From assembly GCA_002439085.1 (NCBI GenBank), contig DJSW01000009.1, forward strand, positions 42,192 through 106,191: 64,000 bases of DNA. The letters are read 5' to 3'. The first letter of the stretch is position 1, and each line of letters begins with the position of its first letter. The notes beneath the pieces were generated by a model. The model ran no database searches, was not told the DNA's origin, and saw only the letters and a list, made by a program, of their open reading frames with translations. A program made the position numbers and the translations under genes. Shown here piece by piece: positions 628 through 31,093 of this stretch. The stretch is from Alphaproteobacteria bacterium UBA6324 (lineage in GTDB: Bacteria > Pseudomonadota > Alphaproteobacteria > CAAGCB01 > CAG-977).

Positions 628-1359
628 TCAGCGCGTGTATTCGTCGCGTTTGCGAATACGCAGCGCCGTGCGTCCCGATTCCTGTTCGCGGCGTTTGGAC
701 ATCTGGTATTTTTTGGCGAAATCCGTGTCGCGTTTGGTAATGGCCTGATCCTTCTGCAATCCGCGCAGTTTACGCAATCTGGAAACGCTGATCTTCTGCC
801 CCTTGGCGTCGGTGATGTACAGTTCTTTTTTGGCTGTCTTTTCCAACTCTTTTTTGCGGTTGCGCTCGATTCTGGCGCGGGACAGACGGCGGCGGCGTTC
901 GGACGGCAACAGACGGCCGGCCGAATGGCGTTTGCGTTTGGTTTTGCCGCCCAATCCGCGCACGTCGCGCTTTTTCAATTCCATCGGTTTGCTGCGCCCG
1001 ACGTACAATCCGGATTCTTGCGCGCGGGAAATGTCGTCGAACGACAGCGCGCCTTCGATTCCCAAACGGCGTTCCTGACGCAACAGATTGTTGCGCACGT
1101 CGATTTTTTCGGCTTCGCGGCGGACGACTTCGCGGCGTTCCTTTTCGGCGTCGGAAACGCGCGGCTGGCGGTTCTGTTCGGCTTTTTCGGCATAGCTGCG
1201 ATCCTCGGCCTCTTTGGCCGCGCGCGCCGTGCGGTACAGGACGCTGTCGTCGCGCACCGTGTTGGAATGGACGCTTTTATCGCCGTGCCGCTGTTGCCAG
1301 ACCAAAGCGCTGTTGTCTGTCAGGCGGATGCGTTTTTTCTTGTTTTCTTCCATTTTCAT
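628..1359 (-). CDS. Hypothetical, extremely charged (Lys/Arg/Glu-rich) 243-aa protein.
   Basis: Complete ORF with an ATG start, followed by the terminator at 565-614. Composition is dominated by K/R/E (e.g. RRRRLSRARIERNRKKELEKTAKKE). No recognisable catalytic motif. An extended -10 (TGnTATAAT; revcomp of 1404-1411) lies upstream. Confidence 0.55.
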   Translation of the reverse strand: MKMEENKKKRIRLTDNSALVWQQRHGDKSVHSNTVRDDSVLYRTARAAKEAEDRSYAEKAEQNRQPRVSDAEKERREVVRREAEKIDVRNNLLRQERRLGIEGALSFDDISRAQESGLYVGRSKPMELKKRDVRGLGGKTKRKRHSAGRLLPSERRRRLSRARIERNRKKELEKTAKKELYITDAKGQKISVSRLRKLRGLQKDQAITKRDTDFAKKYQMSKRREQESGRTALRIRKRDEYTR

Positions 1360-1494: not shown

Positions 1495-3891
1495 TCAATG
1501 GACGGGCAGGGTGATTTGCGTTTTCTTCGCCCCGTTTTTGTCCGAAACGTTCAGCGTCCCGCCGTGCATTTCGATGAACCCGCGGATCAGGGACGCGGCG
1601 AATCCGTTTCGGGCGGCGAAATTCACCGTGTCGGATTCGTTTTTCACGTCCAGCGACGTTTCTTCGATCGCGACGATCAGGTTTTTGTCGCCGGTTTGAA
1701 CGGACAGGGACACGCCGCCGTCTTTGAACGCCGCGGCGACGGCGTTGTTGACAAGGTAGAACAGAACCTGTTTCAACCTTTTTTTATCCGCGACCAAAGT
1801 AGGCAGCTTGTCCGGACACGTCAGGTTCAGTGCGACGTTTTTCAGGCGCGCCTGTTCCTTGACCGCGTTCAAAACGCCGTTCAGCAACGCGCCAATGTCG
1901 ATGCATTCCAATTCCAAAACGGCCGATCCCGTTTCGATCAACGCCAGATCGACCATGTCGCCGAAAAGGTTTTTCAATTCGGCCGACGCGTCGAAAATCG
2001 TTTGCAGGCACGCTTTCTGCCGCCGGTTGAACCGCAGGTTTTCGCCGTCCGACAGTTTTTTGACGGTGTCGGTCAACGCGGACAGCTGCGGATTGATTTC
2101 GCGCCCCAGCTGTTCCAAAAACACGGCGCGCAGTTTTTCGGCCTGCACGGTCGTTTGTTTGAAACGGCTCAGCAACATTTCCTTTTCTTGCGCTAAAGAC
2201 GTGTTCCGTTCCTCTTCCGTCACGTCCAAAAACGAAACGAACACGCCGCCGTCGGGCAATCCGGCCGCGGAAAATTCCAACACTTTGCCGTCGGGGCGCA
2301 GAATCTGGAAAATTTCGCCCGTGTGCGCCGTCGCGACGCCCAGCAGCTGTTCTTTCAGCGTTTCCCAGTTGTCCTCGTTTTCAAAGAAAGGCTTTTGCTT
2401 TTCAATGACCTCAATGATGCTCAAAGGCGGATCGTTGAAATTTTGATCGCCGATCTGCCATAAATTCAGGTACGCCGCGTTCGCCAGACGCAGCCGCCCG
2501 TCGGAACCGAACAGCAAAACGGCTTCGCGCAGGTTGTTCAAAACGGTGTATTGCGTTTCGTTCAACATGGTCATCGACCGTTCCATGGTCAAATGCCCCG
2601 TCACGTCTTCGTAAGTGATCAGCAGGCCGCCTTGGGGGTGCGGGGTCAGCATACGGCGCAAAGTCACGCCGGACGGCAGGTGCAGGATGTCTTCGGTCGT
2701 GGACACCAGCGACGTGAAAAACTTTATTTCGCGGGTTTTATAGGCGTTGAAATCCCTGTTTTCCGGCAGCCGCCGTTTTTCGCGCAGCATATCCAGAATA
2801 TGGGAATACGTCGGCGATTTGTCCAGCCATTCGGCCTCCAAATCCCACAGGTTCATGAACGACGTGTTGTAGAATTGCAGCCGCATATCCGCGTCGAACG
2901 TGGCAATGGCCGTTTTCAGGTGTTCCAAAACGCCGTTGTGCGACGCGATGTGGTTTTTCAGGCTGTTTTCCAACTCCTCTTCCCGCGTGACATCGCGCAC
3001 AAACCCGATCGTGCCGCGTTTTCCCGACGCGCGGGCGGGCAGGGGGATTTCGGACGCCTCGACCCGCCGGCGTTTGCCGTCGATGACGACGAATTCGCTT
3101 GTTTTCTTTTCCTTGCCGGACGCGCGGGCGGCGGCGGCCAGCACTTTGGCTTCGCGCGGGGATTTTTCATACACCAACTCGCCGCCCAGCAAAACGGCCT
3201 GTTCGGGCGAACCGGCGCGCGCCGCCTTTGCGTAGGCGGGGTTGCACGCCGCGATCTGCAGGTCTTCGCCGCGCAGCCATACGGGAAAGGGCAGGGCGTC
3301 GAACGCCTGTTTCAACGTGGCGTTTTTGCGTTCCGCCTCTTCCGCCCGACCGGTCAAAGCGGCCAGCCGCGCGTTGCCGTCCGTCGTTTCCCGCACCCAC
3401 AGCGTATCCACCGCGCCCTTGTTTTCGTCCATGCGGGTTCTGAATCCGGAAACCAGAAAGCTGCGCGCCCCCGCCACGTCGCCCAGTTCCAGCGTGAACG
3501 GCCGGTCGTCGGCGCGCATGGCGTTGATCGCGCCGCTTAACGCTTCGGCGCCGGCGGCGGAAAAATGTTCCAGCAAAGCGTCAAAGGACGAATTGACGCC
3601 CTGCGACAAATCCATCATGACGGCCAGACGGCGCGAACAATGCGTTTCGCGCAAAAAACCGATCGAATCGAACACCCACGAATACCACCCGTCGGGAAAG
3701 CTTTCCAACGTTTCGCGCGCCGTGTCGCGCTTTTCGGCGTTCAAAACGGCCTGTCGCCGCCATTTCAAGGCGCACCGGACGCCCGCGGCCGACAGCAGGG
3801 CGAGCGCGATGAAAACGGCGCACAGCGCTTTCGGGTGGAAAAACGCCGATATCATCAGTTTGGTTAAAAGCGAATCGAATGCCGTTGTCAT
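1495..3891 (-). CDS. Membrane-anchored multi-PAS sensor histidine-kinase-like protein. The dimerization/phosphotransfer (DHp) region has no histidine and the G1 box is degenerate, so it is a DivL-like pseudokinase.
   Basis: 798-aa ORF with an N-terminal TM segment (AVFIALALLSAAGV), several PAS-like blocks, and a C-terminal HATPase_c-like region. The N box is LVNNAV and the G2 box is GFAASLIRGFIEMHGGTL. The expected H box reads FLEQLGREINPQLSAL, with Arg where His (or DivL's Tyr) should be. No His occurs anywhere in about 90 aa of the DHp region. Confidence 0.8.
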   Translation of the reverse strand: MTTAFDSLLTKLMISAFFHPKALCAVFIALALLSAAGVRCALKWRRQAVLNAEKRDTARETLESFPDGWYSWVFDSIGFLRETHCSRRLAVMMDLSQGVNSSFDALLEHFSAAGAEALSGAINAMRADDRPFTLELGDVAGARSFLVSGFRTRMDENKGAVDTLWVRETTDGNARLAALTGRAEEAERKNATLKQAFDALPFPVWLRGEDLQIAACNPAYAKAARAGSPEQAVLLGGELVYEKSPREAKVLAAAARASGKEKKTSEFVVIDGKRRRVEASEIPLPARASGKRGTIGFVRDVTREEELENSLKNHIASHNGVLEHLKTAIATFDADMRLQFYNTSFMNLWDLEAEWLDKSPTYSHILDMLREKRRLPENRDFNAYKTREIKFFTSLVSTTEDILHLPSGVTLRRMLTPHPQGGLLITYEDVTGHLTMERSMTMLNETQYTVLNNLREAVLLFGSDGRLRLANAAYLNLWQIGDQNFNDPPLSIIEVIEKQKPFFENEDNWETLKEQLLGVATAHTGEIFQILRPDGKVLEFSAAGLPDGGVFVSFLDVTEEERNTSLAQEKEMLLSRFKQTTVQAEKLRAVFLEQLGREINPQLSALTDTVKKLSDGENLRFNRRQKACLQTIFDASAELKNLFGDMVDLALIETGSAVLELECIDIGALLNGVLNAVKEQARLKNVALNLTCPDKLPTLVADKKRLKQVLFYLVNNAVAAAFKDGGVSLSVQTGDKNLIVAIEETSLDVKNESDTVNFAARNGFAASLIRGFIEMHGGTLNVSDKNGAKKTQITLPVH

Positions 3892-3924: not shown

Positions 3925-3961
3925 AAATAAAAAACGCCGGAGTTTCCTCCGGCGTTTTGAA
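3925..3961. terminator. Rho-independent terminator downstream of the minus-strand gene 3976..4719 (bidirectional-looking).
   Basis: aaaaaacgccggagtttcctccggcgtttt: a GC stem with A/T runs on both sides. Confidence 0.5.
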
Positions 3962-3975
3962 AGTGTCGCGCGGGC

Positions 3976-4719
3976 TTAACGTTGCGCCTGTTTCGCCATG
4001 GCGGCAACCAGAATCGGTTTTTTCGCGCCGTTCTGGGGCGGGGCGAATTTTTCCAGTTCGCTTTTGCGCTGGGCGGCGTCGGCAACCTGTTTCGCCGTGT
4101 AAATCTTGGGATAATGGGACGCGTTGACGCGCGAAGCGTAATTCGGGTGCACCGGCTGGTTTTCCTTGGTGATGCCGAATTTTTTCGGGTCGTAGATCAT
4201 TTCGTCCGTCCACGGCAGCATGACTTCTTTTTTCTGTCCCGATCCCATGCAGTCCGCGATCTGCGGATCCAGCACGTCGTGGTGCCACTGGTCGTGCGGG
4301 TACAGCGGGGTCATGATGAAGTTGGAAAATTCGTTTTTGCCGCCGCCGTGCAAAGGCAGTTTGTGATGCACGTTGTACCCCGGAACGGAACGGCCTTTTT
4401 TCATCATCGCGATTTCGGAATCGGTCAGGCCGAGTTTGGCGCGCAATTCCGGTTCGTGTTCGTTGGCCAGCATTTTCAGGAATTTGGAACGCACGCCCTC
4501 TTTGCCGCCGGAACCGTTGAATTCGGCGCGTTTGGCTTCGCGTTCCGATTTGGACGGAACTTCGTAGGTGACCTTTTTCAGGCTCATCCCGTGGATGTTG
4601 TCAAAGTTGAACTTTCCGGCGCGCTGTTCGGCGGTGTAGCCCTGTTTCTGGCCTTTGTCCTTGCCGCCTTTGCCGTGGCTGCGTTTCTCGTGAACGTATT
4701 TGTAATCGATATCCAGCAT
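3976..4719 (-). CDS. Colicin E9/pyocin S-type HNH DNase-domain protein (paralog 1). It has a Lys/Gly-rich N-terminus and a conserved ~90-aa C-terminal extension.
   Basis: The motif ...KGRSVPGYNVHHKLPLHGGGKNEFSNFIMTPLYPHDQWHHDV aligns with the colicin E9 DNase core (KGYSPF...[32 protein letters not shown]). The N-terminal KRSHGKGGKDKGQK resembles the E9 DNase-domain start KRNKPGKATGKGKP. GGGGGA SD precedes the ATG, and a terminator follows. Confidence 0.75.
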   Translation of the reverse strand: MLDIDYKYVHEKRSHGKGGKDKGQKQGYTAEQRAGKFNFDNIHGMSLKKVTYEVPSKSEREAKRAEFNGSGGKEGVRSKFLKMLANEHEPELRAKLGLTDSEIAMMKKGRSVPGYNVHHKLPLHGGGKNEFSNFIMTPLYPHDQWHHDVLDPQIADCMGSGQKKEVMLPWTDEMIYDPKKFGITKENQPVHPNYASRVNASHYPKIYTAKQVADAAQRKSELEKFAPPQNGAKKPILVAAMAKQAQR

Positions 4720-4883: not shown

Positions 4884-5702
4884 TTATCCGCGCTGTCTGT
4901 CGCGCACGATCTGACGCAGAGCCGTTTTAACCGGCGTCTGTTTCTGCGTCTGCTTTTTCTGTTCGGCGTTTTTCGCGTCGATGGCCGCGTAAAATTCCTT
5001 CATATCCTTCTGCCGTTTGGCCACGCTGATATGTTCGGGCTTGTACAGCTTCGGATAGTTCGCCGGATCGACGTTGGACACATAGTTCGGCTTGACGGGC
5101 TGGTTTTCCTTGGTGAATCCGAACTGTTTCGGATCATAGATCATTTCGTCCGTCCAAGGGATTTTGATTTTGCGCGTTTCGCCTTCGCGGATGCCCAGCA
5201 GCTGCGCGTCCATCACGTCCTTGTGGAACTGGTCGTGCGGATACAGCGGGGTCAGGATGAAGTTTTTGAATTCGTTTTTGCCGCCGCCGTGCAAAGCCAG
5301 TTTGTGGTGGACGTTGAACCCGTTCGGCGTGTAGCCTTCGCGCATTCCCTGAATGTCGCGGTCGGTCAGTCCCAAACGGTCAACCAGTTCCTTTTCGTGG
5401 TCTTTGGCCAACATTTTCAGGAATTTGGAACGCACGCCTTCGACCAGAACGTTACCGTCTTCGTCGCGCACGCCGTTGAATTCCTCGCGTTTCGCGACGC
5501 GTTCGGCCTTTGACGGGACGGTGTATTCAACCTCTTTCAATTTCAACCCGTGGATCGTGTCGAAAGAGAAATTGCCCTCGCGCTGGTCGCGGTTGTGATG
5601 CCCTTCGGAATAAAAGCCGCCGTTTCCCTTGCCTTTGCCGTTGTTGTTGGAACGGCCTTTGCCGCTTTGGCGTTTGGCGTGAACGTACTTGTCATCAATC
5701 AT
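4884..5702 (-). CDS. Colicin E9/pyocin S-type HNH DNase-domain protein (paralog 2).
   Basis: GFNVHHKLALHGGGKNEFKNFILTPLYPHDQFHKDV. The C-terminal block PWTDEMIYDPKQFGFTKENQPV is shared with paralog 1. GGGAG SD lies 9 nt upstream of the ATG. Confidence 0.75.
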   Translation of the reverse strand: MIDDKYVHAKRQSGKGRSNNNGKGKGNGGFYSEGHHNRDQREGNFSFDTIHGLKLKEVEYTVPSKAERVAKREEFNGVRDEDGNVLVEGVRSKFLKMLAKDHEKELVDRLGLTDRDIQGMREGYTPNGFNVHHKLALHGGGKNEFKNFILTPLYPHDQFHKDVMDAQLLGIREGETRKIKIPWTDEMIYDPKQFGFTKENQPVKPNYVSNVDPANYPKLYKPEHISVAKRQKDMKEFYAAIDAKNAEQKKQTQKQTPVKTALRQIVRDRQRG

Positions 5703-6295: not shown

Positions 6296-7222
6296 ATGCT
6301 GGCAAAAAAACGGTTGCTGACGCGCAGCGATTTCGACGGACTGGTCTGCGCGGCTTTGCTCAAAGAGTTGGACATTATCGACGAGATACGCTTTGTCCAT
6401 CCGAAAGATATGCAGGACGGGCGGATTTCCATCACCGACATGGATATCACCGCGAACCTGCCGTATGTGGACGGGGTGTATATCGCGTTCGACCACCACA
6501 TCAGCGAACTGTCCCGCATCATCAGCCCCCCGAACCACGTCGTTTATCCGAACGCCCCTTCCGCCGCCCGCGTCGTTTACGAATATTACGGTGCCGAGGA
6601 ACGGTTCAAAAACATTCCGCCCGCTTTGATGCAAGCCGTTGACATCGCCGATTCGGCCAAATACACGATTGACCAGATCATGAACCCGACGGGGTGGATT
6701 TTGTTGGCGTTCATCATGGACGCGCGCACGGGGCTGGGGCGGTTCAAAAATTTCCGCATCACGAACTATCAGCTGATGATGAAGCTGGTTGACCTGTGCC
6801 GCACGAAAAGCGTCGATGAGATTTTGCAGGACGAGGATGTCAAGGAACGCGTCGATTTGTATTTCGCACACAAGGATAAATTCGTCGAACAGCTGAAACG
6901 TTGCACCCGCATTCACAAAACGGCGGCGCACATCTATTTGCGCGACGAGGAAACAATTTACGCCGGCAATCGGTTCATGGTATATGCCCTGTTCCCGCAG
7001 ATCAACATTTCCGTACACGAAATTTGGGGCAAGAACAAGCGCAACGTCGTTTTCGCCGCCGGCAAGTCGATTTTCAACCGGACATCGAAAATGAACATCG
7101 GCGAATTCATGCTGCAATACGGCGGTGGCGGCCACATCGCCGCGGGGACGTGCCAAGTTCCCGTCGATCAGGCGGACAGAATCCGCGAAGAGATCATCAC
7201 CGCCATGGTTCAGGACGTGTAA
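6296..7222 (+). CDS. DHH/DHHA1 family phosphoesterase (NrnA-like nanoRNase / pAp phosphatase type), paralog A.
   Basis: RSDFDGLV (DxD), AFDHHIS (DHH) and GGGGHIAAG (the DHHA1 GGGH motif). GAGGGAG SD 8 nt upstream. Confidence 0.8.
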   Translation: MLAKKRLLTRSDFDGLVCAALLKELDIIDEIRFVHPKDMQDGRISITDMDITANLPYVDGVYIAFDHHISELSRIISPPNHVVYPNAPSAARVVYEYYGAEERFKNIPPALMQAVDIADSAKYTIDQIMNPTGWILLAFIMDARTGLGRFKNFRITNYQLMMKLVDLCRTKSVDEILQDEDVKERVDLYFAHKDKFVEQLKRCTRIHKTAAHIYLRDEETIYAGNRFMVYALFPQINISVHEIWGKNKRNVVFAAGKSIFNRTSKMNIGEFMLQYGGGGHIAAGTCQVPVDQADRIREEIITAMVQDV

Positions 7223-7227
7223 AGGCC

Positions 7228-8175
7228 ATGGTTGACGACAGATTCCGGTTGGTGACCCGCAGCGATTTCGACGGGCTGGTCAGCGCGATCCTGCTCAAAG
7301 AGCTGGATCTGATCGACGACATCAAATTCGTCCACCCCAAGGACGTGCAGGACGGTTTGGTCGATATCCGCGCGGGCGACATCCTGACGAACCTGCCGTA
7401 TTCCAAATCGGCGTCCTATGTGTTTGACCACCATATCAGCGAACTGGCGCGCGTCGGGAAAAAAAGCAACAACTTCATCAATCCGGACGCGCCGTCGGCC
7501 GCGCGCGTCGTGTGGGACACGTTTGGCGGAAAGGAACGGTTCCGCAACATATCCGAAGAAATGATGACCGCCGTGGATAAAGCCGACAGCGCCGATTACA
7601 CGATCGACGACATCCTGCATCCGACGGGGTGGACGCTGCTGAGTTTCATCATGGACGCGCGCACGGGGTTGGGGCGGTTCCACAATTTCCGGATATCGAA
7701 CTATCAGCTGATGATGAACCTGATTGATTTCTGCCGGTCGCACGACCCGTCCGAGGTTTTGGAAATGCCCGACGTTCAGGAACGCGTCGATCTGTATTTC
7801 GCCCAACAGGATAAATTTGTCGAACAGCTGAAACGCATTACGACCGTTCATAAAAATCTGGCTTATGTCGATATGCTGAACGAAGATGTCATTTACGCGG
7901 GCAACCGGTTTATGATTTATGCGATTCATCCGGAAATCAACGTTTCGATGCACGCAATGTGGCGCGTCAACGGCCAGCGCGTCGTTTACGCGGTCGGCAA
8001 GTCTATTTTGAAACGCACGAACATCATCAACATCGGCGAACTGATGTTGCAATACGGCGGTGGCGGACACGCGAACGTCGGAACGTGCCAGATTGATTTG
8101 GATCAAGCGGCGCGCGTCAAGGACGAGCTGATCGCCGTGCTGACCGATCCGCAATACACGGAAAAGAATCCTTAA
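7228..8175 (+). CDS. DHH/DHHA1 family phosphoesterase, tandem paralog B.
   Basis: Same motifs (TRSDFDGLV, VFDHHIS, GGGGHANVG). The ATG at 7228 follows the stop of paralog A. The track ORF 6901..8175 is an out-of-context 5' extension. Confidence 0.8.
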   Translation: MVDDRFRLVTRSDFDGLVSAILLKELDLIDDIKFVHPKDVQDGLVDIRAGDILTNLPYSKSASYVFDHHISELARVGKKSNNFINPDAPSAARVVWDTFGGKERFRNISEEMMTAVDKADSADYTIDDILHPTGWTLLSFIMDARTGLGRFHNFRISNYQLMMNLIDFCRSHDPSEVLEMPDVQERVDLYFAQQDKFVEQLKRITTVHKNLAYVDMLNEDVIYAGNRFMIYAIHPEINVSMHAMWRVNGQRVVYAVGKSILKRTNIINIGELMLQYGGGGHANVGTCQIDLDQAARVKDELIAVLTDPQYTEKNP

Positions 8176-18204: not shown

Positions 18205-18238
18205 AAAAAAAGCCTTTCCCGACGAAAGGCTTTTTTTG
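18205..18238 (+). terminator. Rho-independent terminator after hydG.
   Basis: aaaaaaagcctttcccgacgaaaggcttttttt. Confidence 0.55.
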
Positions 18239-18258
18239 TGCGGGAAAACGCGCGAAAG

Positions 18259-18291
18259 AAAACCCCCGCCGTTTTTCGTTCCGGCGGGGGT
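18259..18291 (-). terminator. Rho-independent terminator after the minus-strand gene 18311..20656.
   Basis: The minus strand reads cccccgccggaacgaaaaacggcggggg followed by tttt. Confidence 0.5.
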
Positions 18292-18310
18292 GTTCTTTAA
18301 AGGTTGTTGC

Positions 18311-20656
18311 TTACCGCTGTTTCTGCGCGCTGAGCAGCATATCGAAAGCCGATTTCTTCTGTTCGACCTTGAACCCTTTCAGGTTCAGCGGCGAAGCGCG
18401 TTCCGCCGTTTTCAGCGTTTCGGCATATTTCGCCATGCTTTCAAACGTGCGCAGGTCTTTTTTCTTCAGCGCGGTGGCCGTCTGCGGGCTACCCGTGAAG
18501 GTTTCGACCAGATATTTGTGCGTTCCGGCGACTTCGTTGTACAGCGTGGCGGCGACGTTTTTGTCCATGTTGCCCGCGCTCATCTGGTACTGCGCCAAAG
18601 CGGCCGTCGGTTTCTGTTTGGCTTTCTGGTCGATCAGCATGGACAGAACGGGATCGGCGGACACTTTCGCCCACGTTTCCTTGTCCGAACGGATCGCGAA
18701 AGCGGCAACCTGCGTTTCTTTTTCGGCGATCAAAGCCTTTTTGAAATCCTTGCGTTCGGCGCGCAGCGAATCGATCGTGTCGTTGACCGTCATCTTTTCG
18801 GGTTCGCGCTGGTACGCTTTGATCAGCGCGTTCGACAGAGAGGTCGCGACGCGCAGTTCGTTTTTAATGAAATGGACGATCGCGGCGTCGCCGGAAACTT
18901 CGGTCGTCGATTTGATGTCGTCCAACTGTTTTTTGACCAAGCGGTTGGCGGTCAGCATGGCTTCGACGTTCGGTGCCTGTTCGATGACGGCGTCAACGAC
19001 TTTCAGCTTATCGCCGGCGAACTTGTCGTTGCCTTTGTCTTTGCGGCCTTCCAGACGCAGGGTTTCCTTTTCGTCGCCCAAAACGGCGTGCATTTCGGCG
19101 CGCGATTCGGTGGTGTCCAGTTTGTCCAGCAGATCAGCCTGATACTGCGCGACGCTGAGGGCGCGCTTGTTTTCCGTTTTGGTCGCGTTGGCGCGCTGGG
19201 CTTTCAGCTTCTTTTTCAATTCGGGCGAAAAGTCCGGCGTCGGCGCGGGCAGACCCAAATTGGCGTTCAGCTGGGCGGCTTCGTGATACGCGCTGAGTTC
19301 GCGCTGCAACTCGTATTCCTGTTCCAGCACTTTGTTGTCAACGGGCATATGGTCGCGGGACACCTGAACGCGTTCCATCATCTGTTCGTATTTCGGGTGT
19401 TTTTCGCCGGTCGCCAGAGCGATCGAGATTTCGGCCATCTGCTGACGGGTCAGACCGTAGGTTTCGGACATGACCTGCGCCTGTTTGATGACTTCCAGAT
19501 CCGACATTTTCTGCAGCGAACCGTCGGCCAGATGTTCCTTGGCGTATTTGACCGTGGCGTCGATAACGTCGGTCGTGTGGTACGCCAGCGGCGATCCCAG
19601 CTGTTTGATCGTGTTGGCGACGTTGCGGTCGGCCATCAACTGTTTGAATTTGTTTTCATAATCCGGATCGTTCGGATTCTGCGCCTGCGCCTTTTCTTCG
19701 GCTTCGCGAATCTGTTTGATGAAATCGGTGTCGTATTTCGTGTCGTCCATGCGGCGGTCAACGCACATACGCAAATATTCGATGCGGCAGTCGCCCCAGA
19801 TTTCGGCGCATTTCGTGTTGCCGAAATCGCGCGCCAGCTGCAGAACGGCGTGCGCGTCGGCGATGCATTCCGTGCGGTGGCGGCACATCACGTTGTCCAA
19901 TTCCGTTTCGGCGATTTTGTTGACCGAGTTATAGGCGGACGCGTAGTTGTGGTCGGTCGCGTGTCCCAATTCGTGATACAGAACCAGACGGCGGAATTCG
20001 TCGAAGGAAACGCCTTCTTTCTTGCGGCGTTCTTCGGCGCCGACCACCATGTCCAGAACGTTCGCGCTCATCGCGTCGGGGTTGTCGCCGACGACCAGAT
20101 TGACGTTGCCCAAACCGGCCAGATTTTCCATGGTCGGCGAAACGGCGGCGCGCATCGAAAACGGGTTGCGGTCGGTGATGCCGGCTTCGGAAACGGATTT
20201 CAGAATCTCGTCGTTCGTCAGGAACGTTTTGCCTTTGCCCGCGGCGGCTTTCTGCAATTTGTCCTCGACGTACATATACAGGGATTTGCCCAGCGAACGG
20301 TCGTCTTCGGTATCCAGCAGGTAACGCCCCTGAACCGCGTCGGGGTCGATGATGAACAGCGTGACGCCCGGCATGACCGTGCGGAAACGTTTTTCCATAT
20401 TGTCAAAGAATTGATGCGCTTCGGTGTCCAACGCGGGGGATTTTTCCAATTCGGCGGGCGTTCTGACCGTCAGCGTGTCAGCGGCGTCGCCTTTGGCGAT
20501 GACGGACGTTTGGCCTTTCGGCAGCAAATTGAAGAACGGGCGATCCTGCAAATGGTCGGGACGATCCAAGCCGCTTTCAAAAACCGTGATTTTGCCGGCC
20601 CGCATAAAGGCGTCCAGCAACGAAGAGGTTTTCGATTCTTTGTTTTCTTCAGTCAT
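18311..20656 (-). CDS. Large (781 aa) cytoplasmic-looking HExxH zincin-like protein (HELGH...ECIAD gluzincin-type motifs). No signal peptide.
   Basis: LVLYHELGHATDHNYA...ETELDNVMCRHRTECIADAHAV. AGGAAA SD lies before the second ATG (20656). Terminator downstream. The long antisense ORF 18236..20668+ is a shadow. Confidence 0.7.
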   Translation of the reverse strand: MTEENKESKTSSLLDAFMRAGKITVFESGLDRPDHLQDRPFFNLLPKGQTSVIAKGDAADTLTVRTPAELEKSPALDTEAHQFFDNMEKRFRTVMPGVTLFIIDPDAVQGRYLLDTEDDRSLGKSLYMYVEDKLQKAAAGKGKTFLTNDEILKSVSEAGITDRNPFSMRAAVSPTMENLAGLGNVNLVVGDNPDAMSANVLDMVVGAEERRKKEGVSFDEFRRLVLYHELGHATDHNYASAYNSVNKIAETELDNVMCRHRTECIADAHAVLQLARDFGNTKCAEIWGDCRIEYLRMCVDRRMDDTKYDTDFIKQIREAEEKAQAQNPNDPDYENKFKQLMADRNVANTIKQLGSPLAYHTTDVIDATVKYAKEHLADGSLQKMSDLEVIKQAQVMSETYGLTRQQMAEISIALATGEKHPKYEQMMERVQVSRDHMPVDNKVLEQEYELQRELSAYHEAAQLNANLGLPAPTPDFSPELKKKLKAQRANATKTENKRALSVAQYQADLLDKLDTTESRAEMHAVLGDEKETLRLEGRKDKGNDKFAGDKLKVVDAVIEQAPNVEAMLTANRLVKKQLDDIKSTTEVSGDAAIVHFIKNELRVATSLSNALIKAYQREPEKMTVNDTIDSLRAERKDFKKALIAEKETQVAAFAIRSDKETWAKVSADPVLSMLIDQKAKQKPTAALAQYQMSAGNMDKNVAATLYNEVAGTHKYLVETFTGSPQTATALKKKDLRTFESMAKYAETLKTAERASPLNLKGFKVEQKKSAFDMLLSAQKQR

Positions 20657-20915
20657 AGCGTTTCCTAACATATCTATGAAAACTATATTTATGTTCGCAT
20701 AGTGATACCGCCGTATCCCGAAGTCAAGATTTTTTTAGACAAACACGGAAATTTTTTCTGAAATTATTTTTCCGAACCCCTATTGTTTCCGCCAAATTGC
20801 CGGTTGAACCGTTTTAAAGAAAACCGTCCGGTTCCGGCTATTCGCCCCGTTTGAAAAAAAGATGGAGGCGGGGGCGCGAAAACGCTATCATAATAAAAAA
20901 GGCAAGGAGGCGGAA

Positions 20916-26116: not shown

Positions 26117-26189
26117 GGAAAAAAGTTGTTGATTGAATTTTAATATACGATATGCTGTATTGGTTGATAATCCGAACGGGGAGGGAAAA

Positions 26190-28241
26190 ATGACCGGTTT
26201 GAAAGATTTAAAAGAAGGCATCGAAAAGGGTAAAATCGTTTTGCCGAATGTGCAGCGCGGATTCGTCTGGAAACCGTGGCAGATCGAAAACCTGTGGGAT
26301 TCGTTGATGCGCCGTTTTCCGGTCGGGTCGTTCGTCGGCGTTGAAAAAGACGGCAAGACGGAATTGCTGGACGGGCAGCAGCGGGCGACGGCGATCGCTC
26401 TGGCTTTTTTTGAACCGGACGGAACAGAAGACTCGCAGAACGTGCTGCGGTCTTCGACGGATCGGGTGCGACTGTTCATTGATTTGAAAAAGGGAACGGG
26501 GACTGATCGGAAATACATTTTCCGCGTCATTACGAAATCGCATCCGTGGGGATATCAAAAAAGCCGGAACGATCGGACGTTGAGCGCGGAAAACATTCGC
26601 CGCGCGTGCGAGGATTACAAAATGGCAGATAAAAACCCGTATGCGGAACCGTTGGGCAAATTCTGGCCTTATGACGCGTCGTTTCCCGTGCCGTTCGGTT
26701 TTTTCCTGAACGGTGACAATGCGGCAACCGTCCGTTCAAAAATCGAACGGTGGTGCGAACGGCATCATCAAAAGCCTTTTCCGACGGGGCCGGATTATTA
26801 CGGCATAAAAGAATTGCTTGATACCGTGCGAGATGTTTTGGGTAACACTTCTTTGCCGCTGTTGTTGGTGAGCGAACAGGTTTTGGACGCGGAAACCGGA
26901 TTGTCCGCGTCGGACGGCGAAACCGACACCGATGCGGATGACGGGGACGATGAAATCGAAAACCTGTTCATCCGGCTGAACGCGGGCGGGACGCCTTTGC
27001 GCGGCGAGGAATTGAATTATTCGATTTTGAAAACGAACATCGGTATTGATTTGCAAAAAAGGATTGAAAACGCCTGCGCGGGATTTATGCGTCCGGCGCG
27101 TTTCATCACCATCGCCTGCCGTTTGTACCAGAACCGGCCGGAAAAACCGACGGCCGACGCCGTGACGATGCGTATTCAACCCAAGCAGTTTCAAGGGATC
27201 ATTCGCAATGAAAAAGCGGGATTCATCCGATTCGTTGAAAAATTGCTGGATGCGGATTTTTTGGGGCGCGTGAAAACGGTTCTGCGTTACGATCCGGACG
27301 ACAACGCGTTCGGGCTGCCGGATTTCATCGTTTCGGAATTGGCGGACAGGGCGCCGGAAGTCATGTTGATGCTGATGCACCGTTTGCTTTATACGGATGA
27401 TGAAACGAAAATGACGGAGGAAACGCGCCGCAGGATGCTGGGCGTTGTCACGCTGCTGACGTGGTTCGGAAAGGGGCAGCGCGACCATGCGCCGCTGATC
27501 GGCCGGTTGTGGGAACAGGTCAGAAAAACAAAAGAGGCGGACGCTTTTTGGTCGGCCGGTTTGATGCGGACGGCCTGTGAGGAAAGGGAAAACGAAACCC
27601 TTTTTCCGGCGTTTCCGAAATTTAACGAATTGAAAAAAGGCATAAAAGCCCAAAAAAACATCCGCATAGATTCACTGTATCGCTGGAATTTTGAAAAGGT
27701 TCAACCGTTCTTGTCGCGGCTTTTTTATGAAAGAAGCCTGATCCTTTACGCCCAGCGCGACGCGTTGAACCTGTGGTTCAAAGATTGGCGGGATTTTGAT
27801 TTGGAAGACACGCTGTGTCCGTTCGATTGGGATCACATTTCGCCAGAAAATCTGATTTACCGCAAACGCCATATTCACGACGCGTTGAAAAGCTGGTACC
27901 AGACGAACGGCAATTTCCGCGCGTGGCCGTTTACGCTGAACCGGAAAGATCAAGATGTTGTGCCGAGTGAAAAGCTTTTGTGTTCAAAGAATGATTTCAC
28001 GGACATTTTAAAAAGCATCGGCGTGACGGATTATCCGTATAAATCCGACGTGTTGCTTGATTGGTCGAAATGCGCCAAGGCATGGAAAGAAATTGATTTT
28101 AACGACCTGTCGGAAAAAACGGATTCGCAGCACAAAAGAAACAAACAGCTGATCAACGCCATTATCAACCGCAATCTGGAATTGATCCGGACGTGGTATG
28201 ACGAATTGCGTATCAACGATCTTTGCCCGTCAGGCAAATGA
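26190..28241 (+). CDS. GmrSD-like type IV (modification-dependent) restriction endonuclease: an N-terminal DUF262 (ParB-like NTPase) domain fused to a C-terminal DUF1524 (His-Me finger) domain.
   Basis: DUF262 motifs: PNVQRGFVWKPWQIENLWDSL and LLDGQQRATAIALAFF, then an acidic linker DGETDTDADDGDDE, then FIRLNAGGTPL. DUF1524 motifs: FDWDHISPE and NGNFRAWPFTLNRKDQD. GGAGGG SD before ATG 26190. Confidence 0.8.
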   Translation: MTGLKDLKEGIEKGKIVLPNVQRGFVWKPWQIENLWDSLMRRFPVGSFVGVEKDGKTELLDGQQRATAIALAFFEPDGTEDSQNVLRSSTDRVRLFIDLKKGTGTDRKYIFRVITKSHPWGYQKSRNDRTLSAENIRRACEDYKMADKNPYAEPLGKFWPYDASFPVPFGFFLNGDNAATVRSKIERWCERHHQKPFPTGPDYYGIKELLDTVRDVLGNTSLPLLLVSEQVLDAETGLSASDGETDTDADDGDDEIENLFIRLNAGGTPLRGEELNYSILKTNIGIDLQKRIENACAGFMRPARFITIACRLYQNRPEKPTADAVTMRIQPKQFQGIIRNEKAGFIRFVEKLLDADFLGRVKTVLRYDPDDNAFGLPDFIVSELADRAPEVMLMLMHRLLYTDDETKMTEETRRRMLGVVTLLTWFGKGQRDHAPLIGRLWEQVRKTKEADAFWSAGLMRTACEERENETLFPAFPKFNELKKGIKAQKNIRIDSLYRWNFEKVQPFLSRLFYERSLILYAQRDALNLWFKDWRDFDLEDTLCPFDWDHISPENLIYRKRHIHDALKSWYQTNGNFRAWPFTLNRKDQDVVPSEKLLCSKNDFTDILKSIGVTDYPYKSDVLLDWSKCAKAWKEIDFNDLSEKTDSQHKRNKQLINAIINRNLELIRTWYDELRINDLCPSGK

Positions 28242-29128: not shown

Positions 29129-31093
29129 TTAAAATTCGGGCAAACTTTCCGACAGCTCTTTTTCCTGCGGCGGTTCGGCGGGCTTTTCCGGTTCCTTGGG
29201 CGGCTGTTTTTTGGGTTTTTCCTCTTCCCACACCACTTCGTACAGCGTTTGCGGGGTGTCGATTCCTTTCAGGTTGAATTCGCCTTTCGGAACAAAGATG
29301 TAATTCTTGCCTGCGGCCAGTTCCTTGACGACGGAGGAAACGTAGATTTGGTTTTTGCCGGCTTCGCCGCACACGCGCGACGCCAGCTGGACGGTCAGGC
29401 CGAACAGGTCGTTGTTTTCCACGATCGGTTCGCCGGCGTTCAACCCGATGCGGACTTCCAAAGCGACGGTCGGCGATTCGCGGTTGTACAGACTGACCGC
29501 TTTTTGAATGGCGATCGCCGCGTCGATCGCGTTGGACGCCCACATGAACGACGCCATGATTCCGTCGCCAGTTTGTTTGATCTCTTCGCCGCCGCAAGTG
29601 CTCAACGCCTGACGGACGATCGTGTTGTGCCGGTGGATCAGCTGCTGCGCCATGCGGTCGCCCAGCGTTTGCGTCATATGGGTCGATGACACGATGTCGG
29701 TGAACATGACCGTGCAGATGCCCGACGCGACCGTTTCCTTTTTCGGATTCAGCCAGTTGGCCATTGTTGTTTGGATCAATCCGACCAATTCGGGCGACGA
29801 TTTGTTGTTCAGATAGGTTTCCATGCCCTTGGAACCGTTTTCGATGACGGTCAGGTACTTGGGTTCCATCATGTATTCTTCGATTTTATCGAAAAACAGA
29901 TCGGCCAAAGTCGGGGCGCGCCCCAACAGTTCCAGCAAACCGGCCAGCATCACGCGGTTTTGCTGGGCGGAAAGGGATTTCGACCGGCACAGCCGTTCGC
30001 ACGCGCCGGATAAAAACAGCTCGATTCCGAAACGGGCGTAGGTGTTTAAGAGGGTGTTCTTTTCCTGCAGCACGCGCAAAATGATGGACAGGAACGTCGT
30101 CAGTGTCAGGTAGTCTTTTTCCAATTCCGGCGGGATTTCGGCGTGTCCGGTTTCTTTGGCGGGGGCGGGCGTTGTTTCACCGTTGCCGTTTTCATCCGTT
30201 TCCGCGTTCGCGGTATCGTCGGGCGCATCCGCAGGCGTTTCGGGGGCGGTTTGTTCGGTCTGTTCTTCGCCGGCTTTTTCCTCTTCCCGCTTTTTGCGTT
30301 CCTCGTCGGCGGCCTGTTCCTCCGCCTCTTGCTGTTCGGCCTTTTCCTGCGCGGCCTCTTCGGCCTCTTTCAATCGCTGGGTCAGCGTTTTGCGTCCGCT
30401 CAGCACGTCAAAGGCGTCAAAAACGCGGCGCACCATGCGGGAAACAAGGGAATCGGATTTGGGTTCGGGACGTTCCGAATCGATTTCGTACAACTCGCGT
30501 TTGGAATATTTGGCGTCGTCGTCGCTTTCCTTGGATGTCGGGTACAGAGCGGACGTTTTTGGCGATTCCTCTTCATCCGATCCCAACAGGTTTTCCCATT
30601 TGACCCATTTGATCGCCGTCGGGACGGATATCACCAAAAAGAAGAACGTGAACGTTCCCAAAACGAACTGGCCGGAAATGTCCTGTTGCGAAAAACCGGC
30701 CAATCCCATGACGCGCAAAGTCACCACCGTGATCATGCTGGACAGGATCATGGCAAAGATGATCGACAGAAAGATCATGATGACGCCTTCGGCCAGGCCG
30801 GATTTTTTCCGGTCGTTGCGTTTGACGGTCGTCGGGATCACGCTGTTGGCGTAAGGGGACGATTTCGGCGGTTGCGGTTTCGGTATTTCGCTGAGATAGA
30901 CCATCGCCTCTTGGAACATTTGCGTGTCCAGATCGTAAGTTTCGCGCACGACCTTTGTCGGTTTGCGTTCCGTGTTTTCAATGCTGCGCGCGTATTCGAT
31001 CGCCTTCGACCGCTGTTCGGACGAATAACGCCCCAGCAAATCCCACGCGCTGTTTTGATAAACATAGACTTCGTAATGTATGATCGCGGACAC
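29129..31093 (-). CDS. Membrane-bound class III adenylate/guanylate cyclase. It has an N-terminal TM region and an acidic E/K-rich linker before the C-terminal cyclase homology domain.
   Basis: VMFTDIVSSTHMTQTLGD...GDGIMASF...RIGLNAGEPIV matches the cyclase homology domain. GTG start. Confidence 0.85.
   Translation of the reverse strand: MSAIIHYEVYVYQNSAWDLLGRYSSEQRSKAIEYARSIENTERKPTKVVRETYDLDTQMFQEAMVYLSEIPKPQPPKSSPYANSVIPTTVKRNDRKKSGLAEGVIMIFLSIIFAMILSSMITVVTLRVMGLAGFSQQDISGQFVLGTFTFFFLVISVPTAIKWVKWENLLGSDEEESPKTSALYPTSKESDDDAKYSKRELYEIDSERPEPKSDSLVSRMVRRVFDAFDVLSGRKTLTQRLKEAEEAAQEKAEQQEAEEQAADEERKKREEEKAGEEQTEQTAPETPADAPDDTANAETDENGNGETTPAPAKETGHAEIPPELEKDYLTLTTFLSIILRVLQEKNTLLNTYARFGIELFLSGACERLCRSKSLSAQQNRVMLAGLLELLGRAPTLADLFFDKIEEYMMEPKYLTVIENGSKGMETYLNNKSSPELVGLIQTTMANWLNPKKETVASGICTVMFTDIVSSTHMTQTLGDRMAQQLIHRHNTIVRQALSTCGGEEIKQTGDGIMASFMWASNAIDAAIAIQKAVSLYNRESPTVALEVRIGLNAGEPIVENNDLFGLTVQLASRVCGEAGKNQIYVSSVVKELAAGKNYIFVPKGEFNLKGIDTPQTLYEVVWEEEKPKKQPPKEPEKPAEPPQEKELSESLPEF

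Follow-up and report, generated by a model that had tools for sequence, protein, structure and literature searches.

A predicted DivL-family pseudo-histidine kinase with arginine at the phospho-acceptor position in an uncultured rumen alphaproteobacterium

We analyzed a 64,000-nucleotide stretch of the genome of Alphaproteobacteria bacterium UBA6324 (GenBank assembly GCA_002439085.1, contig DJSW01000009.1, positions 42,192 to 106,191), referred to here as the window. A complete open reading frame (ORF) on its minus strand (1495..3891) encodes a 798-amino-acid protein that is built like a membrane-bound sensor histidine kinase and carries Arg at the phospho-acceptor position. Judged from its sequence, the gene belongs by descent to the DivL family, as a diverged but ordinary representative in an uncultured rumen alphaproteobacterium of the Rhodospirillales type. 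DivL is known as a catalytically inactive "histidine kinase" that guides the cell cycle relay of alphaproteobacteria. The ORF was taken from the ORF list and is matched by homologs of the same length, which are abundant in independent assemblies; six public contigs carry the gene for the identical protein. The closest genome is that of a rumen metagenome-assembled genome (MAG), "uncultured Rhodospirillales bacterium RUG12246" (96% amino acid identity). Others that are close were found in MAGs from the human gut, ruminants, and horse that are labeled Alphaproteobacteria or Rhodospirillaceae, and at least 526 GTDB species genomes carry a relative.

The features of the gene, all on the minus strand, were assigned from Pfam matches, from sequence reading and alignment, and from an AlphaFold2 model built with 91 homologs (mean predicted local distance difference test score, 82). 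The model consists of an N-terminal helix, four PAS-like folds (residues 68 to 168, 204 to 300, 328 to 429, and 457 to 556), a two-helix DHp (558 to 615 and 623 to 653), and an alpha/beta CA domain (661 to 796). An N-terminal hydrophobic segment (residues 22 to 42, ALCAVFIALALLSAAGVRCAL; 3766..3828) reads as a membrane anchor and lies inside the long N-terminal helix of the model. It is followed by domain A (residues 68 to 168; 3388..3690), which was recognized as PAS-like from the secondary structure of the model. PAS-B (residues 204 to 300; 2992..3282) is supported by Pfam PAS_4 and the model and ends in a D300-V-T motif, the Asp of which is invariant in the family alignment. PAS-C (residues 328 to 429; 2605..2910) and PAS-D (residues 457 to 558; 2218..2523) are supported by Pfam PAS_7 and the model, and PAS-D ends in the signal transmission motif D556-V-T558. 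The Pfam matches in this region are PAS_4 (197 to 305), two PAS_7 stretches (the better at 451 to 563), and PAS_8. Domain A is the least conserved sensory domain, with 54 to 65% identity to clade relatives versus 87 to 92% for PAS-C. PAS-C is the best conserved region of the protein, contains a dense run of invariant residues, and reaches 92% identity to relatives that are 72 to 77% identical overall.

The signaling helix and DHp hairpin (residues 558 to 653; 1933..2220) were placed by the two model helices and by alignment to the DHp domains of DivL and HK853. The degenerate, HATPase_c-like CA domain (residues 661 to 796; 1504..1911) was placed by an HATPase_c match, by comparison of its boxes, and by the model. 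The HATPase_c match is marginal (28.5 bits against a cutoff of 26.4), and the Pfam HisKA-type models do not match the protein even at an E value of ≤10. NCBIfam kinase models align over residues 564 to 758. In the AlphaFold2 model and by Foldseek, the alpha/beta fold of the CA domain resembles those of kinase CA domains, and its lid loop (748 to 762) is disordered or modeled without confidence. An earlier reading of this gene, made from the letters alone (the sequence-only reading), had described a sensor kinase with a membrane anchor, several PAS domains, a DHp helix pair, and a CA domain, and this architecture was recovered in full.

The sequence-only reading had suggested confirming the acceptor position with HisKA, HWE_HK, and DivL profiles in HMMER. 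No HisKA-type model matches, so no placement came from Pfam HisKA or HWE profiles, and the acceptor column was instead placed by four independent alignments. In a phmmer alignment against the PDB, LGREINPQL lies opposite VSYELRTPL of Caulobacter DivL (Tyr550) and ISHELRTPL of HK853 (His260). Arg597 (codon CGC, 2101..2103), at the position held by His in kinases and by Tyr550 in Caulobacter DivL, also falls in the acceptor column in a MAFFT alignment of 120 homologs, in an hmmalign alignment of 149 library representatives (in which the column is His in 104 and Tyr in 23), and when the family profile is aligned to the Caulobacter DivL structure 4q20. The His residues closest to Arg597 are residues 523 and 776, and the closest Tyr residues are 474 and 712; residues 524 to 775 contain no His, and residues 475 to 711 contain no Tyr. 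The claims that Arg occupies the acceptor position and that no His or Tyr occurs within about 90 residues thus both stood, and all four alignments place Arg597, not a His from elsewhere in the protein, in the acceptor column.

We compared the ATP-binding boxes across the family. The N box, LVNNAV (residues 713 to 718; 1738-1755), is kept, and both its Asn715 and the HGG motif (residues 776 to 778) are retained. G1 reads IEETSLD (residues 742 to 748; 1648-1668) in place of DxGxG, with the Asp and both glycines gone; the sequence-only reading had likewise called this box degenerate. That reading had also listed recognizable N and G2 boxes. The N box bears this out; G2 does not, because it reads NGFAAS (1591-1608) where box-keeping relatives have GLGLSL, and all of its glycines except one are gone. 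In those relatives, G1 is ADTGxG and G2 is GLGLSLV. The protein therefore has two features of a canonical HisKA histidine kinase, the N-box Asn and the Bergerat fold, and lacks three, the His, G1, and G2. Because Arg597 holds the acceptor position, phosphoryl transfer to the canonical DHp site is predicted to be ruled out in this protein, and normal ATP binding is improbable. The earlier proposal that the protein is a non-phosphorylatable pseudokinase was borne out by all of the sequence-level tests that we ran.

Several lines of evidence indicate that this pseudokinase belongs to the DivL family. The best solved-structure match of the protein in a phmmer search of the PDB was Caulobacter DivL (4q20; E value, 2.3e-12). 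A search of the PDB with the family profile also placed 4q20 first (E value, 2.7e-43; 151 bits), followed by GacS (1.1e-33) and HK853 (about 1e-28). A protein from Paramagnetospirillum magneticum (P0073) is 35% identical to the query over 98% coverage (E value, 3e-133), and in the MAFFT alignment its acceptor column is Ala (ANVSAEVRKPL). Previous work described Tyr as conserved at the DivL acceptor position, with the DivL of M. magneticum, which has a non-phosphorylatable Ala, as the one exception (Childers et al. 2014, PMC4211667). P0073 carries this Ala and corresponds to that DivL.

Collinearity of the PAS region was assessed with representatives picked by DHp-CA similarity alone, and at least 300 collinear amino acids were required. 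We found that the PAS region of the query (residues 1 to 560) is collinear with 20 of the 23 Tyr-type proteins (E values, 1e-51 to 1e-94) and with only 5 of the 104 His-type kinases. The layout of Caulobacter DivL, comprising a membrane anchor, domain A, PAS-B, PAS-C, PAS-D, DHp, and CA (10.1101/812529), is that of the query. The D-x-T signal transmission motif of Caulobacter DivL is D516/T518 (bioRxiv 10.1101/812529), and D556 of the corresponding D-V-T motif in PAS-D is invariant in the family. Counted from this Asp to the acceptor, the distance took only two values, exactly 34 residues (56 sequences) and exactly 41 residues (57 sequences). The query spacing (D556 to R597) is 41, which equals the 34 residues of Caulobacter DivL (D516 to Y550) plus one heptad, and the 41-residue spacing marks the gut/rumen clade. 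The gene order divL, tsaE, APH-type kinase gene, nucleotidyltransferase gene, and addB is common to 35 to 38 of 79 loci, down to about 35% identity. Nearly all locus-bearing genomes have a single locus, and one MAG has two. In sum, the query shares with DivL full-length collinear homology, architecture, a non-His acceptor, the D-x-T motif with an in-register linker, and, by the PDB searches, a DHp-CA closest to DivL among characterized kinases; the hallmark that it lacks is Tyr at the acceptor position, where it has Arg. The sequence-only reading had called the protein analogous to DivL. The likeness holds, and the relationship is one of descent, not of analogy.

The five His-acceptor proteins with a DivL-like PAS region (P0174, P0144, P0231, P0234, and P0177; SHE[IV]RTPL) may be active-kinase relatives or may represent an ancestral-like state of DivL.

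We next considered the acceptor column across the family. Among the 120 homologs in the MAFFT alignment, it is R in 30, A in 17, D in 11, Q, G, and E in 8 each, and T and S in 7 each; the rarer states are Y (6), H (3), K, N, and C (2 each), and F and V (1 each). Among 79 GTDB species loci, of which 9 were not scorable for this column, it is A in 30, Y in 10, C in 6, R and G in 5 each, F in 4, S and E in 3 each, Q in 2, and K and D in 1 each, and none of these loci has His. The states follow the clades: the query clade has mostly R, K, Q, or H, the Magnetospirillum-type proteins have A, C, or S, and other lineages have D or E, or Y or F. Three clade relatives (P0031, P0038, and P0043) have His in this column. 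The sequence-only reading had asked whether orthologs conserve the Arg. They do not: in relatives 66 to 77% identical to the query, the residue is R, K, Q, H, or D. Arg is one replacement among several, with no special conservation. We concluded that the Tyr acceptor defines a Caulobacter/Rhizobiales subgroup and not the entire DivL family.

Some of the loci bear labels that do not fit their content: L008, L024, L032, L050, L053, L058-L060, L063, L066, L068, L069, and L080 carry an alphaproteobacterial divL under non-alphaproteobacterial names (Limosilactobacillus gorillae, Patescibacteria, Sulfotelmatobacter, Actinomycetota, or Marinimicrobia). These are likely mislabeled or contaminated bins.

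The ATP-binding boxes vary along with the family. Intact G1 and G2 are retained in members with S[AYC]E[VL]RTPL and are lost in many other lineages, including that of the query. Inside the query clade, the degenerate boxes are themselves conserved (EExSL[DN] and NGFAASLIRxFIEMHGG). To compare selection along the protein, we calculated the ratio of nonsynonymous to synonymous substitution rates (dN/dS) by the Nei-Gojobori method for each region of the window gene against its orthologs. The figures come from L006 and L002-L004; several other comparisons were saturated (dS of >1.5 or undefined) and were not relied on. We found dN/dS values of 0.04 to 0.18 for DHp and 0.07 to 0.18 for CA (0.07 to 0.12 in the tabulation by region). 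The values for the sensory regions were 0.15 to 0.31 for domain A, 0.10 to 0.30 for PAS-B, 0.04 to 0.07 for PAS-C, and 0.07 to 0.15 for PAS-D. DHp-CA is thus under purifying selection comparable to that on the PAS domains and is not a decaying remnant.

Previous work demonstrated that DivL lacks kinase and phosphatase activity, that its DHp binds DivK~P, and that it controls CckA (PMC4211667, PMC9430884). In Caulobacter, free DivL stimulates the CckA kinase, and docking of DivK~P on the DHp of DivL switches CckA toward phosphatase activity (PMC4211667, PMC9430884, 10.1101/812529). The DivL signal runs "backwards," through the signaling helix and D-x-T motif to PAS-B and PAS-D (PMC4211667, PMC9430884, 10.1101/812529). 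We favor the reading, to which we give a probability of roughly 65%, that the query is a DivL ortholog that acts as a non-phosphorylatable modulator of CckA and uses its dead DHp-CA as a response regulator input and dimerization module. According to this model, which extends what is known of Caulobacter and Rhizobiales DivL, the protein would be a dimeric, membrane-anchored pseudokinase. Its PAS domains would touch the hybrid kinase CckA and set the balance between its kinase and phosphatase activities, and thereby CtrA activity. The dead DHp-CA would serve for input and dimerization. The most likely trigger would be a phosphorylated, DivK-type single-domain response regulator that docks on DHp-CA, and the resulting conformational change would reach the PAS domains in reverse, along the coiled-coil helix and by way of the D-V-T motif ("reverse signaling"). 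The weakest step of this mechanism is the identity, and even the existence, of the docking regulator.

Several observations weigh against this reading. The residues of Caulobacter DivL whose mutation impairs DivK~P binding are R553, T557, Y562, H579, and A601 (PMC4211667). Three of these five differ in the query (R553 to N600, Y562 to T609, and H579 to C628); in the phmmer alignment, A601 is kept as A650 and T557 corresponds to S604. In place of ELRTPL the query has EINPQL, in which the Pro sits one position away from its usual place. The 64-kb window contains none of the cckA, chpT, ctrA, divK, pleC, and divJ genes; a Pfam scan of about 40 of its ORFs found no receiver domain, kinase, or CtrA-like protein, and the CtrA box TTAA-N7-TTAA occurs 0 times in it versus 0.49 times expected by chance. 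Close gut relatives (L008-L015 and P0046-P0050) have an internal deletion in DHp. Two further relatives, from human-gut and horse-feces MAGs (L016, 8001-9482; L023, 8001-9623), encode a PAS-only DivL that stops after PAS-D, and no DHp-CA remnant was found downstream of PAS-D in either locus. DivL without a kinase module has been found in organisms that lack DivK (Brilli et al. 2010, PMC2877005; PMC4211667). Finally, when DHp-CA alone was searched against 1.84 billion representatives, hybrid kinases and Tyr-type proteins scored alike beyond the query's own clade. Because this search was uninformative, the argument for DivL orthology was built on the PAS region and on the family profile.

Alternatively, the query could be a DivL ortholog in a lineage that has lost DivK, so that DHp-CA no longer senses any response regulator. 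DHp-CA would then be only a dimerization or structural element that holds the PAS domains in a geometry that activates CckA, and the protein would be an evolutionary intermediate on the way to PAS-only DivL. This is the best placed of the alternatives, and we consider it possible though clearly less probable than the model above. In its favor are the diverged docking motif and DivK contacts, the failure of Pfam HisKA to recognize the DHp, and the internally deleted and fully truncated forms in sister gut lineages. Precedent exists as well, since a "large version of DivL with degenerated HK and CA domains" has been reported in Oceanicella and Albimonas after DivK loss, and DivK is missing from several Rhodospirillales (PMC9430884). 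However, selection on DHp and CA is as strong as that on PAS-B and PAS-D, which seems excessive for a bare dimerization helix, especially in the case of CA. In addition, the degenerate G1 and G2 are conserved inside the clade, the linker stays in strict heptad register, and the signal transmission motif is invariant. Retention of DHp-CA has also been found to accompany the presence of DivK (Brilli et al., PMC2877005; Childers et al., PMC4211667).

A more speculative proposal, which we regard as doubtful, is that the dead DHp-CA of the gut/rumen clade has gained a distinct selected function, either through an acceptor residue that reads phosphate or through a remodeled ATP pocket. In the closest relatives, the acceptor column is largely confined to residues whose side chains are long and polar or basic (R, K, Q, and H), and such a residue could clamp the phospho-aspartate of a partner regulator. 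Alternatively, the conserved former ATP pocket (EExSLD/NGFAAS) might accommodate a new ligand or partner in organisms without DivK. If true, either would mean that the CckA-CtrA relay of anaerobic gut alphaproteobacteria receives its input in a new way.

Descent from DivL itself could be questioned, in that an unrelated multi-PAS histidine kinase paralog might have lost its acceptor His independently and now be decaying. DHp-CA alone matches mostly His-type hybrid kinases at similar scores. A Foldseek search of the PDB with the full-length model returned generic PAS-kinase structures and did not set 4q20 apart from HK853, ZraS, and RetS. The classical Tyr hallmark is also missing. In contrast, the homology to M. 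magneticum DivL and to Tyr-type proteins is full-length and collinear, and with the family profile 4q20 scores ten orders of magnitude better than the next kinase. The distance between motif and acceptor equals that of Caulobacter DivL or exceeds it by 7, synteny is conserved, nearly every locus-bearing genome has one locus, and the low dN/dS speaks against decay. We regard this explanation as largely refuted and very unlikely.

Even less probable is an active kinase, whether it relies on an unusual acceptor, receives its phosphate in trans, or takes up nucleotide in an altered pocket. The retained Asn715 and HGG motif would fit such activity, as would the three clade relatives with His in the acceptor column and the finding that Caulobacter DivL Y550H accumulates phosphate when driven with DivK~P (PMC4211667). 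However, no His or Tyr is available near Arg597, the G1 Asp and the G1 and G2 glycines are gone but for one in G2, the ATP lid region has no confident model, and the acceptor column varies freely among close relatives. Even with its boxes intact, Caulobacter DivL has no autokinase activity and binds a nucleotide analog only weakly (PMC4211667).

The sequence-only reading had named a frameshift or sequencing error that restores a canonical H box as grounds for refutation. Such an artifact, arising from faulty sequencing or assembly or from a pseudogene, might be suggested by CGC (Arg), one base from CAC (His), but is refuted because the motif LG[RKQ]EINPQL recurs in dozens of independent assemblies at 66 to 96% identity, because the frame is intact for 798 codons while stops interrupt the other frames and none of them has an H box, and because dN/dS is well below 1, in addition to the six contigs that encode the identical protein.

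Taking the gene as a DivL ortholog, we compared it with known systems. Caulobacter crescentus DivL (769 amino acids; DHp-CA structure, PDB 4q20) resembles the query in its anchor, domain A, PAS-B, PAS-C, PAS-D, DHp, and CA, in its non-His acceptor, and in a PAS-D D-x-T motif at a heptad-equivalent distance from it. The two differ in the acceptor (Tyr550 versus Arg597), in the linker (34 versus 41 residues, an extra heptad in the signaling helix of the query), and in the boxes, all of which Caulobacter DivL keeps, whereas G1 and G2 of the query are degenerate. They also differ at the docking site, where the query has EINPQL for ELRTPL and does not conserve R553, Y562, and H579, and they are only about 21 to 22% identical across DHp-CA. 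Magnetospirillum magneticum DivL is a full-length homolog of the query, and both have a non-phosphorylatable, non-Tyr acceptor. The Magnetospirillum type has SAEVRKPL, intact G1 (DTGTG) and G2 (GIGLAL), and a spacing of 34, while the query lacks these boxes and has a spacing of 41. The long DivL proteins of Oceanicella actignis and Albimonas pacifica and the PAS-only DivL of Rhodobacterales (PMC9430884, PMC2877005) show the same erosion of DHp-CA with the PAS domains kept, and the relatives of the query likewise display the entire erosion series. The query differs from them in belonging to another order (gut and rumen Rhodospirillales-type MAGs) and in that its eroded module is under purifying selection. 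Pseudomonas RetS and Streptomyces PsmA also reuse a kinase fold for protein-protein regulation. RetS is among the sequence and fold matches of the query, and this likeness is generic to DHp-CA.

Non-phosphorylatable, non-Tyr, degenerate long, and truncated forms of DivL have thus already been described, and what characterizes the query is the combination of an Arg acceptor, an extra heptad, and boxes that are eroded yet conserved. Two points are modestly new. The published statement that Tyr is conserved with one Ala exception fails for Rhodospirillales-type lineages, in which Ala is the commonest state and at least 12 residues occur, and the linker length is quantized at 34 or 41 across the family. 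A variable acceptor and a fixed linker fit a DHp that works in DivL as a conformational relay or docking surface and not through the chemistry of its acceptor. The appropriate annotation would be DivL-type pseudokinase in place of "sensor histidine kinase" or "PAS domain protein." The CckA-CtrA relay is probably retained in uncultured alphaproteobacteria of the rumen and gut, and the gut clade, with its long-degenerate, internally deleted, and truncated forms, offers a natural series for the loss of a pseudokinase module.

We also examined the neighborhood of divL. Upstream of the gene, a putative terminator-like hairpin followed by a T-run (aaaacgccgg/ccggcgtttt; 3929..3958, minus strand) was read from the sequence. 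It follows the upstream gene's stop codon (3976-3978) and precedes the divL ATG, and about 37 bp remain between it and the ATG for a promoter and ribosome-binding site. Directly upstream are tandem paralogs at 3976-4719 and 4884-5702, both on the minus strand, encoding proteins of 247 and 272 amino acids with no Pfam match. They share the His-rich motif HHKLxLHGGGKNEFxNFIxTPLYPHDQ[WF]H, which resembles the core of a His-Me/HNH-type nuclease. The pair looks like a recent insertion because, among 79 related loci, only the 96%-identical rumen MAG (L006) has it. A second pair of tandem paralogs lies on the plus strand at 6296-7222 and 7228-8175 (308 and 315 amino acids; N termini "RSDFDGLV..LLKELD"; no Pfam match). 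Homologs about 60% identical to this pair occur close to divL in three loci of the Magnetospirillum type (L038, L040, and L057), a hint that the association with divL is older.

On the other side of the gene, two genes are inserted between divL and tsaE, one for a very basic, Lys/Arg/Glu-rich protein of 243 amino acids (628-1359, minus strand) and one for a protein of 313 amino acids (L001, 3831-4772), both without a Pfam match. This insertion is found only in the gut/rumen clade (13 to 15 of 79 loci), and in distant relatives tsaE directly follows divL.

In the rest of the window, three long ORFs at 18236-20668 (plus strand), 45840-48038 (plus strand), and 61130-63856 (minus strand) would encode proteins of 732 to 908 amino acids with no Pfam match. 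Their third-position GC content is 0.59 to 0.61 versus about 0.7 in neighboring genes. These ORFs could be foreign DNA, or they could merely shadow real genes on the opposite strand. We also found a protein with a GmrSD-type restriction endonuclease N-terminal domain (26133-28241, plus strand) and a 654-amino-acid protein with an adenylate/guanylate cyclase catalytic domain (29129-31093, minus strand). The remaining genes of the window are housekeeping genes (MscL, RuvAB, Tol-Pal, TilS, and YmdB).

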